A stretch of 64,000 nt of DNA from NCBI GenBank assembly GCA_963775115.1, contig CAVZHP010000005.1:127817-191816 (forward strand), given 5' to 3'. Positions 26,312 to 32,049 of the stretch are shown here, piece by piece (position 1 is the first letter of the stretch; every line of letters starts with the position of its first letter). Below the pieces are notes generated by a model. The model did not search any database and was not told where the DNA came from. It worked only from the letters and a program-made list of their open reading frames with translations. Both the position numbers and the translations under genes were made by a program. Source of the DNA: an uncultured Alphaproteobacteria bacterium. GTDB lineage: Bacteria; Pseudomonadota; Alphaproteobacteria; Sphingomonadales; Sphingomonadaceae.

Positions 26312-26662
26312 ATGGTCCGGCCGCTTTACATGGCTGGCGGCATCGTCTCGATGGGCCTCGGCATAATCGGAATTGCCCTGCCGATCTTGCCGACAGTGCC
26401 ATTCCTGCTGCTCGCCGCCTTCTGTTTTGCTCGCAGCCAGCCCGAATGGGAGCGCCGCCTGCTCGATCATCCGCGCTACGGCCCCTCGCTTCGCGACTGG
26501 CGCGAACGCGGAGCGATTGGCAGGAAGGCCAAGATCTCCGCACTGCTCGCAATGTCGGCGGGGGTGGTGTTCACCGGGCTGACGGTCGGCTGGCCGTGGG
26601 TGCTCATTTCCATCGCAATTCTGGCGATATGTGGCACATGGATATGGACCCGGGCTGAATAG
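26312..26662 (+). CDS. YbaN (DUF454) family membrane protein
   Basis: GIIGIALPILPTVPFLLLAA.CF.RS, HP.YGP.L.DW. Confidence 0.9.
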   Translation: MVRPLYMAGGIVSMGLGIIGIALPILPTVPFLLLAAFCFARSQPEWERRLLDHPRYGPSLRDWRERGAIGRKAKISALLAMSAGVVFTGLTVGWPWVLISIAILAICGTWIWTRAE

Positions 26663-26702
26663 CGCGCCTTGAAAATGGCGCAGCGAAGCCTATTGGCAAG
26701 CC

Positions 26703-28151
26703 ATGGCCAGCAAACCCCGTACACTCTACGAAAAGATCTGGGACGCCCACGTCGTCTCGCGCCGCGATGACGACACCTGCCTGATCTATATCGACCGGCA
26801 CCTTGTCCACGAAGTCACCAGCCCGCAGGCCTTCGAGGCCCTGCGCGTCGCGGGCCGCACGGTGCGCCGTCCTGACCTGACGCTGGCGGTGCCCGATCAC
26901 AACCTGCCGACGACGGCCAGGCGCGATAGCGCCGGCGCGCGCATCCCGATTGCCGATGCGGAGAGCGCACAGCAGCTCGCCGCGCTGGAGCAGAACGCTC
27001 CGGCCTTCGGCATCCGCTATATCGGCGCGACCGATGCCGAGCAGGGGATTGTCCATGTCGTCGGCCCCGAACAGGGCTTCTCGCTCCCCGGCGCCACGAT
27101 CGTTTGCGGCGACAGCCATACGAGCTGCCACGGCGGCCTTGGTGCGCTGGCCTTCGGCATCGGCACATCCGAAGTCGAGCATGTGCTGGCAACGCAAACT
27201 CTGCTGCTCAAGCAGTCGAAGTCGATGGAAGTGCGGGTCGAGGGCGAGCTTGCCCCGGGCATCACCGCCAAGGATCTGGTGCTCCACATCATCGGCGTGG
27301 TCGGCACGGCGGGCGGCACCGGCCATGTCATCGAATTCCGCGGCAAGGTGTTTGAGCAAATGAGCATCGAGGGCCGGCTGACCGTCTGCAACATGAGCAT
27401 CGAGGCGGGCGCGCGTGCCGGCCTGGTCGCGGCGGACGAGACCACCTTCGCCTACCTCAAGGGCCGCCCTTATGCGCCCACCGGCGCTGAGTGGGACGAG
27501 GCCCTTGCCTGGTGGAAGAGCCTGACGACCGATCCGGGCGCGCAGTTCGACAAGTCGGTGGTCATCCAGGCCAGCGACGTCCAGCCGACCGTTACCTGGG
27601 GAACCTCGCCCGAAGATACGGTAGCCATCGGCGGCGTAGTCCCGGCGCCGGAAAGCTTCGCCGACCCCAGCAAACAGGAAGCCGCGAAGGTCAGCCTCGA
27701 CTACATGGGCCTGACCCCGGGCACGCGGATGCAGGACATCGAAGTGCAGAACGTGTTCATCGGCAGCTGCACCAACAGCCGCATCGAAGACCTGCGCGCG
27801 GCGGCGGCAGTGCTGCGCGGGCGCCACAAGGCGGCAAACGTGAAATGGGCCATCGTTGTCCCCGGCTCGGGACTGGTGAAAGCCCAGGCCGAGGCCGAGG
27901 GGCTGGACAAGGTGTTCACCGAAGCTGGCCTGGAATGGCGCGAACCGGGCTGCTCGGCCTGCCTCGGCATGAACCCCGACAAAGTCCCCCCGGGCGAACG
28001 GTGCGCCTCGACCAGCAACAGGAACTTCACCGGCACGGCAGGGACCTGGGGCGCGGACGCATCTGGTGAGCCCCGCGATGGCAGCGGCGGCGGCGGTGAC
28101 CGGGCGGTTGACCGATGTGCGGGAGCTGGTTTGACCCTCGCCGCCGATTGA
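26703..28151 (+). CDS. leuC: 3-isopropylmalate dehydratase large subunit; apparent +1 frameshift at about 28035 (the canonical C-terminus ends at 28134 in the shifted frame)
   Basis: [35 protein letters not shown]; [20 protein letters not shown] lies in the shifted frame. Confidence 0.95.
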
Positions 28152-28199
28152 CGTCGCCACCCATTCGCGCAAGTCTCCCTAACTCAGGGGGAAGCGATC

Positions 28200-29084
28200 A
28201 TGGACAATAGCGCCTATTCCGGCGAACTCGCCGAATTCCGCACATTCACGCAGAGCCGAAAATGGTTCTCGGACAACGACGACCGCGCCTGGGCGGAGAA
28301 GTTCTTTCTCACTTACATCCCCGTTTTCTTCCTCATCAGCGGGATCACCTCGCGCACCGGGCTGAGCCTCGAAGGCAACTGGCAGAATCTCCTCGCCGGC
28401 CTGCTCGTCTGGCTGCCGTATTGCGTAATCCTGCCCCTGATCCTGCGGCGCAACCACCCGCTCCCGTTCTGGAAGCAGTGGTGGTTCAAGTTCCAGCTCT
28501 ACCTCGTGGTGGTGATTTTCTTCCTCACCTATTTCGGCACCGAATATTTCTTCGACGTGCTGGGCATGCGCTACAACTACCCAAACGTAAGCTGGTATTT
28601 CAATTCCGTCCTGCTTGGCCCGGATCAGGCGACGGCGTTGGCCGACCATAAACGCGTGCCCATCGGCATGTATCCGATCTCGGTCGGTTTTTTCACGGTT
28701 TATCATATCGGCGCGATTGTCATGATCCGCCGGCTCTATCGTCTGGGCACTGCAATGGGCGTCACCGCCGGTCGCGCGGCCTTTGCCTTGGGCGTCGTGC
28801 TCACCGCGCTGTTCTGGGCATGGCTGGAAACCATGTTGTTCGTCAGCCAGCCCAAGGGCTCCTTTGCCTGCTATGAAGACCTCGAGCGCCAGCTTGGCAT
28901 CGGCAGCTTCTTCTATGCGATGGGCTTCCTGTTCACTTTCGCCAATGTCTATTGGCTCGACGAACGGGCGAGCCACCGGCCGTGGAGCAACTACCGCGTG
29001 GCCGTCGAGGCGACGGCAATGTGCATCCTCGTACTGCTCGCGGGAGACTTGTGGGCACAGGCCCTCGGCGTGCAATTCGGCTAA
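28200..29084 (+). CDS. Multi-pass membrane protein resembling cycloeucalenol cycloisomerase (cyclopropylsterol isomerase, CPI1 family)
   Basis: RAWAEKFFLTYIP, TYFGTEYFFDVLG..Y.YP, YH....IRRL, AWLET, GSFFYA, LDE...W...RVAVEA, DLW...LG match the order and spacing of CPI1 motifs as recalled. Confidence 0.7.
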   Translation: MDNSAYSGELAEFRTFTQSRKWFSDNDDRAWAEKFFLTYIPVFFLISGITSRTGLSLEGNWQNLLAGLLVWLPYCVILPLILRRNHPLPFWKQWWFKFQLYLVVVIFFLTYFGTEYFFDVLGMRYNYPNVSWYFNSVLLGPDQATALADHKRVPIGMYPISVGFFTVYHIGAIVMIRRLYRLGTAMGVTAGRAAFALGVVLTALFWAWLETMLFVSQPKGSFACYEDLERQLGIGSFFYAMGFLFTFANVYWLDERASHRPWSNYRVAVEATAMCILVLLAGDLWAQALGVQFG

Positions 29085-29147
29085 GCTTTACACCACCCCG
29101 CCCCCGCCCTAGCCTCCACCCCGGAATTGCGAGGGAGGTGATCGACC

Positions 29148-30218
29148 ATGGCCAAAGGCGTGCGCGTACCCGAGCGGGCCTTCGGGATCGCCATGTGGGT
29201 GGTCTCGATCGTCCTCGCCGCTTTCATTATCGGTCTCGGCAATCTGGTGATTGGCGATCTGCCGCAAGTCGAACAGACGATTTCGCAGGAGCAATTCACC
29301 GAATCCGGGGCGACCAAGAAAATCCGCGACGAGCTGAAAGCGATCGAGGCCCGGCGCGGCGCGATCGACGACAGGCTCGAGATCGCCCGGCTCCAGCTCG
29401 AACAGGCGCAGAAAGCCTCGACCACCGGCACCGAAACCTTCCAGGCCTGGATCCAGACCCGCACCGCCACCACCAATCCGCAGCAGGATCCCGAGGTCAT
29501 CGCCCGCACCCGCGCGCTCGAACAGCTCAAGGGCAATGAGCGCGCCGTTCAGGCTTCGATCGACGCGCTGGACAATGAGCGGGTTCCGCTGGACCAGCGC
29601 GTATCCGAGCTGAACGAGCAGCAATCGCGCCTCCAGGCCAGTGCCTGGCCAGCCTATGAAAAGGCTATGTTCGCGCAGGAACTGCGGATATTCGGCCTGC
29701 GTCTGCTGATCACCCTGCCGATGCTGCTGCTGGGCGGCTGGCTGGTGGTGAAGAAGCGCAAGAGCGACCACTGGCCGATGATGCGCGGCTTCGTGCTGGC
29801 AGCGGTGTTCGTCTTTTTCGTCGAGCTGGTGCCCTATCTGCCCAGCTATGGCGGCTATATCCGCTATGCCGTCGGCATTGGCCTGACCATCGTCGCCGGT
29901 CATTATCTGATCAAGAACATGCGCGCTTACCTCGCCCGGCGGCAGGAAGCGGAACAACAAGGCGAGGAAGAACGCCGCAAGCTGGTTTCCCATGACGAGG
30001 CGTTCAAGAAGATGGCTGCCAAAGTCTGCCCCGGCTGCGACCGGCCGATCGCCGCGATGGAAGGTGCCGAAAGCAATTTCTGCGTTCACTGCGGCATGAC
30101 GCTCTATAACCATTGCGGCCAGTGCAAGACGCGCAAGATGGCGTTCTTCCGCTTCTGCCTGTCCTGCGGAACCCCTGCGGAAGTGGCCGCACCAGCAACT
30201 GGGTCAGCAACCGATTAG
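29148..30218 (+). CDS. Membrane protein with a coiled coil and C-terminal double zinc ribbon
   Basis: CPGC, CVHC, CGQC and CLSC pairs; transmembrane segments flank the coiled coil. Confidence 0.75.
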   Translation: MAKGVRVPERAFGIAMWVVSIVLAAFIIGLGNLVIGDLPQVEQTISQEQFTESGATKKIRDELKAIEARRGAIDDRLEIARLQLEQAQKASTTGTETFQAWIQTRTATTNPQQDPEVIARTRALEQLKGNERAVQASIDALDNERVPLDQRVSELNEQQSRLQASAWPAYEKAMFAQELRIFGLRLLITLPMLLLGGWLVVKKRKSDHWPMMRGFVLAAVFVFFVELVPYLPSYGGYIRYAVGIGLTIVAGHYLIKNMRAYLARRQEAEQQGEEERRKLVSHDEAFKKMAAKVCPGCDRPIAAMEGAESNFCVHCGMTLYNHCGQCKTRKMAFFRFCLSCGTPAEVAAPATGSATD

Positions 30219-30287
30219 TGGCTGGCGGATGTCGATTTCCACGCACTTGCCCTTGAAACCCGGCCATGCCATCGACATAGGGGAAGC

Positions 30288-30455
30288 ATGACCCGCAAGA
30301 TGCCAGAATTCCCCGACTGGGCCGGCAAGGCCGCCATCGCCGGTGCCGCCGCAATCGGCTCGGCCGCGATCGCCGCCGCCCTGCTTTACGCCAACCGCCG
30401 CAGGGCAAAAGCTCCCGAGCCAATCCGTCCCGAAGACGCACCGGAGACCGACTGA
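30288..30455 (+). CDS. Small single-TM protein (55 aa) coupled to leuD; not in the ORF track
   Basis: [39 protein letters not shown]...; RBS-like GGGGAAG upstream; TGATG overlap with leuD. Confidence 0.65.
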
Positions 30456-31057
30456 TGGAGCCGCTGCGCCATGTTGCGGGGCGGGCGATTCCGTTCGGTC
30501 GCAAGAATGTCGATACCGACGTTGTCATTCCGGCGCACTGGCTCAAGACGATCAGCCGCGAAGGGCTCGGTAAGGGCGCCTTCGAGGCGGTGAAAAAAGA
30601 GCCGGGCAATGTCTTTTGCGACCCGCAGTTCGACCGCGCGCCGGTGCTGATCGCGGGTGACAATTTCGGCTGCGGCTCCAGCCGCGAGCATGCCGCCTGG
30701 GCCTTGCTCGACATGGGTGTGACCTGTGTGATCGCGCCGAGCTTTTCCGACATCTTCTCGGGCAATGCCTTCAAGAACGGCATCCTGACAGTCGCGCTAC
30801 CGCAAGAGGCGGTCGACCGGCTGCTGGAAGTGGCGAAGAGCGATCCGATCGACATCGACCTCGAGACCCAGACCGTCACCACGCCGTTCCAGGACCGTTT
30901 CAGCTTCGAGATCGATCCCTTCCGCAAGCATTGCCTGCTGGACGGGCTTGACGAGGTCGGCCTGACCCTGGCGCAGGACGCGGAGATTTCCGCGCATGAG
31001 GCGAAGATCGGCCAGTCGCTGCCATTCCTTTCGCACGCCGAGAGGCGCGCGGCATGA
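30455..31057 (+). CDS. leuD: 3-isopropylmalate dehydratase small subunit
   Basis: [35 protein letters not shown]. Confidence 0.97.
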
Positions 31058-32049
31058 AGGCGCTGCGCTCCCACGCATCCGGCGGGCCCGAAACTCTGAC
31101 GCTCGACGAATTGCCCGATCCTGTCCCCGGCGCGAACGAAGTGCTGGTCGCGGTCAAGGCCTGCGGGATCAACTTCCCCGACACCCTGATCGTCGCCGAC
31201 CTCTACCAATACAAGCCCGAGCGGCCATTCTCGCCCGGTGCGGAAATTGCAGGTGTGGTGGAAGCGGTGGGTTCAAGCGTCACCCGCTGGAAAGCAGGCG
31301 ACCGGGTCTCGGCGGTGTTGATGTGGGGCGGCCTGACCGAGAAAATGGTGCTGGGCGAAGACAAGCTGTTCGCCCTGCCTGAAGGCGTCGATTTCGAACA
31401 CGGCGCAGCGATGCTGCTGACCTATGCAACCACGCTCTATGCACTGCGCAATCGCGCCCAGCTGCAGGCCGGAGACACCTTGCTGGTGCTCGGCGCGGCG
31501 GGAGGCACCGGGCTATCGGCAGTCGAACTGGGCAAGGCGCTCGGCGCGAGAGTGGTCGCCGCCGTGTCGAGCGAGGAAAAGGCGGCGATCGCGCGCAAGG
31601 CGGGTGCCGATGAAACCGTCATCTACAGCCGCCCACCGTTCGACCGCGAGCAATCGCGCGCATTGGCGGGGCAGTTCAAGGCGGCCTGCGGGGCAAACGG
31701 CGCGCAGGTGATCTACGATCCGGTCGGCGGGGCCTATGCCGAGCCGGCGCTCCGCACGATCGGCTGGGAGGGCCGCTATCTGGTGATCGGCTTCACCGCC
31801 GGCATTCCCTCGCTCCCGCTCAACCTGGCGCTGATCAAGAGTTGCGACATCCGCGGCGTGTTCTACGGCGCATTCACCGAACGCGATCCGGCGGCCAATT
31901 CGGCGCTGGTCGGCGAGCTTTACGCGATGATGGAGCAAGGCCAAATCAAGCCGCTGATCTCCGCCACCTTCCCGCTGGCACGCGGCGGCGAGGCGATCGC
32001 CATGCTTTCGGACCGCAAGGCACTCGGCAAAGTCGTCGTGCGCATGTAG
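31054..32049 (+). CDS. NADPH:quinone oxidoreductase family (MDR) protein
   Basis: [30 protein letters not shown]. Confidence 0.9.

Follow-up and report, generated by a model that had tools for sequence, protein, structure and literature searches.

The CPI-like gene and its product

The 64,000-nucleotide stretch of DNA analysed here (the window) comes from an uncultured member of the Sphingomonadaceae (contig CAVZHP010000005.1, assembly GCA_963775115.1) and carries, at 28200-29084 on the forward strand, an ATG-to-stop open reading frame (ORF) for a 294-residue protein related to plant cyclopropylsterol isomerase (CPI). The initial annotation described the product as a polytopic membrane protein, which is borne out by the exact ORF and by an AlphaFold2 model with seven long helices. 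It also placed the gene between leuC and leuD, where it does sit, although a gene for a 356-residue membrane protein with a double zinc ribbon (DZR) lies there too. The distances to the annotated end of leuC and to the zinc-ribbon gene are 48 bp and 63 bp, respectively, and the features of the locus are collected in Table 1.

The window protein matches no Pfam-A or NCBIfam model. A word-indexed search returned 159 relatives, many of which JGI/IMG labels ‘cycloeucalenol cycloisomerase’, a name that UniRef gives to one (Solimonas terrae). When a profile of 21 bacterial relatives (profile A1) was scored against 1.8 billion representative proteins, 896 proteins matched, among them the CPI of Populus alba (E = 1.3e-35), the cyclopropylsterol isomerase of Paris polyphylla (E = 1.4e-32), the CPI of Aegilops (E = 1.1e-30) and the named CPI of Elaeis, Mercurialis and Palpitomonas. 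By BLASTP, the window protein is 29-30% identical to the Populus and Paris proteins over ~200 residues (E = 4e-18 and 3e-18), and comparison by hhalign with an alignment of 14 sequences of the His-type described below, mostly eukaryotic and four of them named CPI, gave a probability of 100% and an E value of 2.6e-62 over 260 columns, from residue 14 to the C terminus. The motifs that the initial annotation had lined up with Arabidopsis CPI1 are indeed colinear when set against real plant-type sequences: WAEKFFLTYIP corresponds to WGEIFFLVYTP, TYFGTEYFFDVLG..Y.YP to NYFWTHYFFTVLG..YTFP and WLET to FLET, and LDE and DLW also match. The kinship with CPI1 claimed there is thus upheld by profile, BLASTP and hhalign searches, and sequence comparison confirms the window protein as a genuine full-length homologue of the CPI family (EC 5.5.1.9).

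In the AlphaFold2 model (pLDDT 84, pTM 0.86) the seven helices span 23-29 residues each, and the N terminus is predicted to be cytoplasmic by the positive-inside rule. A Foldseek search of the PDB with this model gave a best E value of 0.33 at a TM score of ~0.2, and a PDB sequence search returned nothing significant. Since neither search produced a match, we do not regard the window protein as an EBP/EXPERA-type isomerase, and we dropped the idea of an EBP/EXPERA fold for CPI.

Table 1 Features of the CPI-like locus (positions in the window)
Feature	Position	Strand	Basis or remark
leuC (context)	26703..28151	+	Pfam/NCBIfam; frame shifts near 28037
Shine-Dalgarno-like GGGGGAAG	28187..28194	+	5 nt before the CPI-like ATG, read off the sequence
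CPI-like gene, predicted 7-TM membrane protein of the bacterial Glu-type CPI branch	28200..29084	+	ORF, profile matches, hhalign, AlphaFold2, dN/dS
Glu33 codon (WAEKFF)	28296..28298	+	Kept in 220/242; counterpart of Glu in plant WGE(I/L)FF
Glu115 codon, T-E-YFF motif	28542..28544	+	Eukaryotic/plant CPI have His (T-H-YFF)
Loop segment between helices 3 and 4, ~residues 133-152	28596..28655	+	Alignments; lacking in eukaryotic His-type proteins
His169 codon, mid-helix 4	28704..28706	+	Kept in 218/242
Glu210 codon	28827..28829	+	Further conserved polar residue, alignment
Asp283 codon	29046..29048	+	Further conserved polar residue, alignment
Arg177 and Asp254/Glu255 codons		+	Further conserved polar residues, alignment
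356-residue membrane protein, C-terminal double zinc ribbon (DZR; context)	29148..30218	+	Pfam scan
leuD (context)	30455..31057	+	Pfam/NCBIfam

The Glu-type branch of the family

Where the eukaryotic proteins read G-N-Y-F-W-T-H-Y-F-F, the window protein reads L-T-Y-F-G-T-E-Y-F-F, with Glu115 in place of His and Gly113 in place of Trp. Residue conservation was counted over 242 full-length family members, and the motif column holds Glu in 145 of these and His in 82. His is found in all named plant, fungal and protist sequences, while Glu is present in the window protein and in all of the 80 best loci from bacterial genomes. An IQ-TREE phylogeny of 72 sequences splits the two groups by one branch (SH-aLRT 96), and the Glu group is further set apart by a loop insertion of ~15 residues following helix 3. 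The bacterial Glu-type CPI-like clade, as delimited in this analysis by the T-E-YFF motif and a D-S-x-L-L-G loop, includes the window protein, which falls outside the His-type clade of characterised or named CPI. We rejected the notion that the split divides ‘non-sterol’ from ‘sterol’ enzymes, because true CYP51 genes stand immediately in front of the genes of both deep and crown Glu-type members. P0182, a candidate for a bacterial His-type member, was likewise rejected as eukaryotic, its neighbours being VPS11 and Kelch genes. The deep search also returned CPI-family proteins from the filamentous ascomycete Gaeumannomyces (P0154), the chytrid Powellomyces (P0208) and the holozoan Syssomonas (P0167), lineages usually thought to take the lanosterol route.

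The sites conserved across the 242 members are E33, K97, Y111, T114, F117, Y125, P154, Y168, H169, R177, E210, G235, Y239, D254/E255 and D283. Those conserved in both branches are E33, K97, Y125, P154, Y168, H169, R177, E210, D254/E255 and D283, and the window protein possesses the E-T pair E210/T211 together with E33, H169, R177, D254/E255 and D283. Its loop reads N-S-V-L-L-G in place of the Glu-type D-S-x-L-L-G. The Asn135 responsible (28602-28604) is unique to the window protein among 21 aligned relatives; 97% of Glu-type proteins have Asp at this site, and His-type CPI has Asn. In the Arabidopsis enzyme, Rahier and Karst reportedly found in 2014 that Glu29 and Asp260 are essential and that Trp112 is a specificity determinant. 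Presumably these residues would align with E33, D283 and G113, which we treat as a lead and not as evidence.

Gene neighbours and genomes of the carriers

Among 185,579 species genomes, a pattern scan picked out 262 loci that encode a relative (at least 262 bacterial species), and the best 80 of the 262 were compared after genes had been called and neighbours clustered. These 80 come from Novosphingobium metagenome-assembled genomes, Sphingomonas formosensis, Solimonas, Nevskia, Hydrocarboniphaga, Litorivivens, Spongiibacteraceae, Haliea/Sediminihaliea, Rhodospirillales, Binatia and many Myxococcota. CYP51 (40-43% identical) is adjacent to the CPI-like gene in 7 of the 80 loci (L045, L046, L047, L052, L029, L072 and L077), of which L045 groups with the window protein in one larger clade. 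The deeper Glu-type members P0108, P0111 and P0116, which are 36-39% identical to the window protein (against 44-45% for L045-type loci), lie immediately behind a P450 gene. These P450s are true CYP51 enzymes: the P450-ferredoxin fusion of L122 scores 685 bits against the Methylococcus CYP51 fusion 6MCW, and the P450 of L120 scores 456 bits. L122 (431-4397) joins CYP51-ferredoxin and the CPI-like gene with genes for an FA_hydroxylase (SMO-like), a 3Beta_HSD, an aldehyde dehydrogenase, a GMC oxidoreductase and TetR, L120 (7871-8731) carries a gene of the bile-acid/sodium symporter family (SBF), and the two sets, both from uncultured bacteria, resemble a plant-type module for the steps after cycloartenol in compact form. 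Two operons of the deep clade, L120 (6405-7004) and L121 (6471-7004), also encode a conserved NTF2/SnoaL_2-like protein of 177-199 residues (MPxFPRxExEEM...), whose gene lies between CYP51 and the CPI-like gene and overlaps the CPI start by 4 nt. This protein, which belongs to the ketosteroid-isomerase-type fold family, is a candidate for a further sterol isomerase.

In Solimonas, a gene for a Rieske oxygenase with a KshA C-terminal domain (184 bits) sits directly upstream of the CPI-like gene, and a TonB-dependent receptor, a P450, a KstD-like flavoprotein and DUF1302 are encoded nearby. An extended SDR is encoded directly downstream on the same strand in 20 of 61 non-Novosphingobium loci (gaps of -34 to +46 bp). 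This partner falls under Pfam Epimerase/3Beta_HSD, with weak similarity to HpnA and SdmB, and its PDB relatives are generic only. Further P450s near CPI-like genes are CYP107/125/142-like, and acyl-CoA synthetase and enoyl-CoA hydratase genes occur near some relatives. The nearest relatives outside Novosphingobium, from S. formosensis, Binatia and a soil deltaproteobacterium, are without CYP51, and their CPI-like genes lie beside genes for a DapB/Ord-like oxidoreductase, a CMD-family protein and an SDR.

The same association extends to whole genomes. In a set of 45 carrier genomes, which includes the genome of the window, a true CYP51 (38-45% identical to the L120 enzyme) occurs in 24, often directly upstream of the CPI-like gene. 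KshA_C-type Rieske oxygenases are present in 44 of the 45, usually in several copies, compared with 6 of 301 (2%) evenly drawn random genomes of the same phylum that are at least 90% complete and none of 14 control genomes. A triterpene cyclase was detected in 16 of the 45, in every case with the DxDD(T/S)A motif of a squalene-hopene cyclase (SHC), and the motif of an oxidosqualene cyclase (OSC) was found in none of the carriers. In plants, CPI yields obtusifoliol, the substrate of CYP51, and C4-demethylation by SMO and 3beta-HSD/D comes before CPI (PMC8172173, PMC2817430). The occurrence of CYP51-CPI pairs in genomes that lack OSC suggests that the sterols handled by the Glu-type branch are cyclopropyl, 14-methyl ones derived from outside the cell. 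The carrier taxa also overlap with the predicted steroid degraders among Proteobacteria, which include Hydrocarboniphaga, Novosphingobium, Sphingomonas and OM60 (Bergstrand et al., PMC4810484). At the family level there is thus a strong genomic linkage, which would tie the bacterial CPI-like branch to the processing of sterols from outside the cell and not to sterol synthesis.

The genome that contains the window, that of a Novosphingobium-type bacterium (4.05 Mb, 14 contigs, 93% complete), encodes one triterpene cyclase, on contig C13 within an hpnA-(hpnB/C)-hpnD-hpnE-shc-hpnG cluster. With 753 bits against the hopene cyclase model TIGR01507, 234 against an OSC model whose cut-off is 851, and the motif DLDDTA, this protein is an SHC, and the bacterium is predicted to make hopanoids. 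The cluster (L002:5994-13698) also holds a 710-residue ORF that matches HpnB (residues 64-246) and HpnC (442-700), and that represents a fusion or else the product of stop-to-stop ORF calling across two genes. Neither OSC nor CYP51 was found in the genome, and no homologue of the partner SDR was found at E < 1e-10. As both OSC and CYP51 are missing, the CPI-like gene cannot serve endogenous sterol synthesis, and the lack of CYP51 means that the plant-like sequence from CPI to CYP51 cannot run here. The absence of sterol-synthesis genes that the initial annotation had noted for the window therefore holds for the whole genome, its sole triterpene cyclase being the SHC on another contig. Many P450s are encoded, and contig C10 has a KstD-like protein with 751 bits against a cut-off of 789 for 3-ketosteroid-1-dehydrogenase. 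Its gene lies in a catabolic region (C10:100000-156000; L105-L107) that also encodes enoyl-CoA hydratases, a TonB receptor, a molybdopterin oxidoreductase, a Rieske oxygenase and at least five acyl-CoA ligases, two of them FadD3-like and one BaiB-like. The genome also holds two CMAS-family genes, one of them (C5:117539-118330) ~10 kb upstream of the window start and ~38 kb from the CPI-like gene on the same contig.

The history of the locus can be read from its relatives. The CPI-like gene is present in 7 of 151 sampled Novosphingobium genomes and the zinc-ribbon membrane gene in 24 of them. CPI-lacking relatives (G179 and G098) have the order sufE-DUF454-leuC-DZR-leuD-QOR, which shows that the CPI-like gene was inserted horizontally, in one small subclade, between leuC and the DZR gene of an older leuC-DZR-leuD arrangement. 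As the gene is an insertion, nothing about leucine metabolism can be read from its position. At 0.61, its G+C content is slightly lower than the 0.65-0.67 of its neighbours. Since its arrival it has been kept by purifying selection, as indicated by dN/dS values of 0.13-0.36 (about 0.2) at dS of 0.6-1.0 across eight pairs of Novosphingobium orthologues, and synteny is kept in ~13 species. No promoter-like sites were found in 26500-31200 and no terminator-like sites in the intergenic gaps of that region, where their frequency did not exceed that of shuffled sequences, so that co-transcription of the CPI-like gene with leuC...leuD is plausible. In leuC, the annotated frame continues past ...CASTSNRNF as an unrelated tail up to 28151, while the conserved C terminus, which matches that of a relative, is read in a different frame that ends with a stop at 28132-28134. 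This shift reflects either a one-base assembly error or a real lesion. The product of 29148-30218 has a coiled-coil-like N-terminal half, and its match to PF12773 (23 bits) is under the cut-off.

Proposed function and competing explanations

We tentatively propose that the window protein is a Glu-type CPI-family isomerase that processes exogenous cyclopropyl sterols of plants or algae, a reading that we favour while accepting that it may well prove wrong. In this model, a horizontally acquired gene, now flanked by leuC and a resident gene for a membrane protein and probably transcribed with both, would encode a functional seven-helix integral membrane enzyme of the Glu-type CPI branch. By analogy with plant CPI, E33, E115, H169, E210 and D283 could transfer a proton to a polycyclic triterpenoid, at a strained or unsaturated carbon, and remove a neighbouring one. 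On a 9beta,19-cyclopropyl sterol the three-membered ring would be opened to a Delta8 olefin. The substrates would most likely be of the cycloartenol, 24-methylenecycloartanol or cycloeucalenol type and enter the membrane from outside. Ring opening would give back the ordinary C19 methyl group and free C9 from the ring, and the KshA-like and KstD-like oxidoreductases encoded elsewhere in the genome may need this to have happened first. We infer the substrate, reaction and physiological role of the window copy from its family. The initial annotation had suggested catabolism of plant triterpenoids. The tie to exogenous sterols stands for the family, for which catabolism is plausible and remodelling of scavenged sterols may apply instead; for the window copy, a sterol substrate and a catabolic purpose are both hypothetical.

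Several observations weigh against this proposal. CYP51 is absent from the genome itself and from the nearest relatives (the Novosphingobium subclade, S. formosensis and Binatia). The genome search for steroid-degradation genes that the initial annotation had put forward yielded, beside the one KstD-like protein, two KshA_C hits that are weak (97 bits each), and a complete 9,10-seco steroid pathway was not recognised in the C10 region with the NCBIfam models tried. The window copy has no adjacent CYP51, extended SDR or KshA-like partner; its neighbours are leuC, the zinc-ribbon gene and leuD, and it is thus set among leucine-biosynthesis and housekeeping genes. Glu115, Gly113 and Asn135 may alter specificity or activity, and we know of no member of the Glu-type branch that has ever been assayed. 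Finally, the presence of SHC in all seven carriers of the genus fits a hopanoid-related role as well, to which it lends weak support.

The most serious competitor, unlikely but deserving of attention, is that the protein isomerises exogenous sterols or triterpenoids by a different reaction, such as a Delta8/Delta7-type shift, in the service of either catabolism or remodelling. The family-level association with KshA-like, KstD-like, SDR and P450 proteins would hold equally, and the subclade could have lost its CYP51 partnership since its substrate changed, CYP51 having been lost both there and in Nevskiales. The motif changes from His to Glu, Trp to Gly and Asp135 to Asn would fit as well. Although the window protein has neither sequence nor fold similarity to the EBP/EXPERA Delta8-Delta7 isomerases, the two are alike in membrane-embedded acid-base isomerisation of sterols via a carbocation, and carbocation-mimic inhibitors act on both plant CPI and sterol Delta8-Delta7 isomerase (10.1101/2023.03.02.530820), which suggests that their chemistry is close. 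However, the motif Glu is common to the CYP51-coupled relatives and so does not mark a changed reaction, and the family has no member with another known reaction.

A less probable scenario is that, in sphingomonads that produce hopanoids and lack CYP51, a CPI-like enzyme was re-tasked to an endogenous lipid, as a hopene isomerase or as an opener of cyclopropane lipids. In its hopanoid form, to which we assign a similarly low probability, the protein would be a new tailoring enzyme that isomerises the hopene double bond of the cell's own hopanoids. If true, this would be the first hopanoid-ring isomerase, shifting the double bond by the same proton-transfer chemistry. The complete hpn cluster of the genome is in keeping with it, as is the distribution of SHC, which occurs in all 7 Novosphingobium carriers but only 29 of 144 non-carriers of the genus (20%), and in 8 of 10 genomes of the window's subclade compared with 7 of 34 other carriers. 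Yet the genus carriers form one subclade, so that this association amounts to essentially a single event, and any cyclase is missing from 29 of the 44 other carrier genomes. The gene is neither in nor near the hpn cluster, which is on a different contig, and its relatives are linked to CYP51 and sterol enzymes and not to hpn genes.

Action on another cyclopropane lipid, for example the opening or rearrangement of cyclopropane fatty acyl chains, had been offered by the initial annotation as an alternative; it gained no support and appears very unlikely. CMAS (CFA-synthase) homologues do occur in 40 of the 45 carriers, with two copies in the window's own genome, and the genes for acyl-CoA synthetase and enoyl-CoA hydratase near some relatives would suit such a role. 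However, CMAS is widespread among bacteria (5 of 14 control genomes), its occurrence in carriers is uninformative short of a matched background, none lies near the CPI-like gene in the compared loci, and the most specific neighbours (CYP51, KshA_C, FA_hydroxylase and 3Beta_HSD) act on sterol rings. At least as improbable is a decaying or functionless passenger of the horizontal insertion. The patchy distribution, the lack of partner genes, the replacement of the near-invariant Asp135 and the frameshifted leuC next door might be taken as signs of this, but the ORF is unbroken, the remaining conserved residues are all in place, and the dN/dS values and the conserved synteny argue for a maintained gene. 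A CPI step in an endogenous, plant-like sterol biosynthesis, for which only homology and the IMG/UniRef names speak, can be discounted almost entirely, as the single cyclase of a 93% complete genome is an SHC and CYP51 is absent.

The proposed processing of exogenous cyclopropyl sterols can be set against the systems known for the family. Plant CPI1 is Arabidopsis At5g50375, EC 5.5.1.9 (Lovato et al. 2000, as cited in PMC8172173). The window protein resembles it in size, seven-helix layout and full-length homology at 28-30% identity, but differs in having Glu for the motif His, Gly for the preceding Trp and the ~15-residue loop, and in falling into a separate clade; its host lacks cycloartenol synthase and CYP51, and the step is thus not a biosynthetic one. 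Myxobacterial CPI1 homologues are known from sterol producers such as Plesiocystis pacifica (Desmond and Gribaldo 2009, PMC2817430; Hoshino and Gaucher 2021, PMC8237579), whose genomes also hold SQMO, OSC, CYP51 and ERG24-27, and these homologues have been read as biosynthetic. They are bacterial members of the same family, whereas the window gene lies in an alphaproteobacterium without the SQMO/OSC/CYP51/ERG24-27 set. The CYP51-(ferredoxin)-(NTF2-like)-CPI-like operons of uncultured bacteria (L120, L121, L122, L045-L047 and L052) belong to the Glu-type branch as well; the motif Glu is present in five aligned operon proteins (P0108, P0111, P0116; L045), L046, L047 and L052 having been left out of that alignment. 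In contrast to these, the window gene has lost, or never had, sterol-type neighbours, and its genome has no CYP51.

The family as such is already auto-annotated in IMG and UniRef, and bacterial homologues have been published for the myxobacterial sterol producers; our literature search found no paper that discusses proteobacterial members. Accounts of CPI usually describe an enzyme of plants and algae, together with a few homologues from sterol-producing myxobacteria. Here, a sizeable bacterial CPI-like branch is found in genomes that are unable to make sterols, very often together with CYP51 and almost always with KshA-type oxygenases, and this broader pattern is more interesting than the window locus. 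The window copy is the least informative member of the branch; its worth lies in being a natural ‘orphan’, through which one could ask whether the enzyme works alone and on which substrate. Cultured carriers exist in Solimonas, Litorivivens, Hydrocarboniphaga and Sphingomonas formosensis. The pattern raises the question of whether soil, freshwater and marine bacteria use CPI-type ring opening on cyclopropyl sterol precursors shed by plants and algae.

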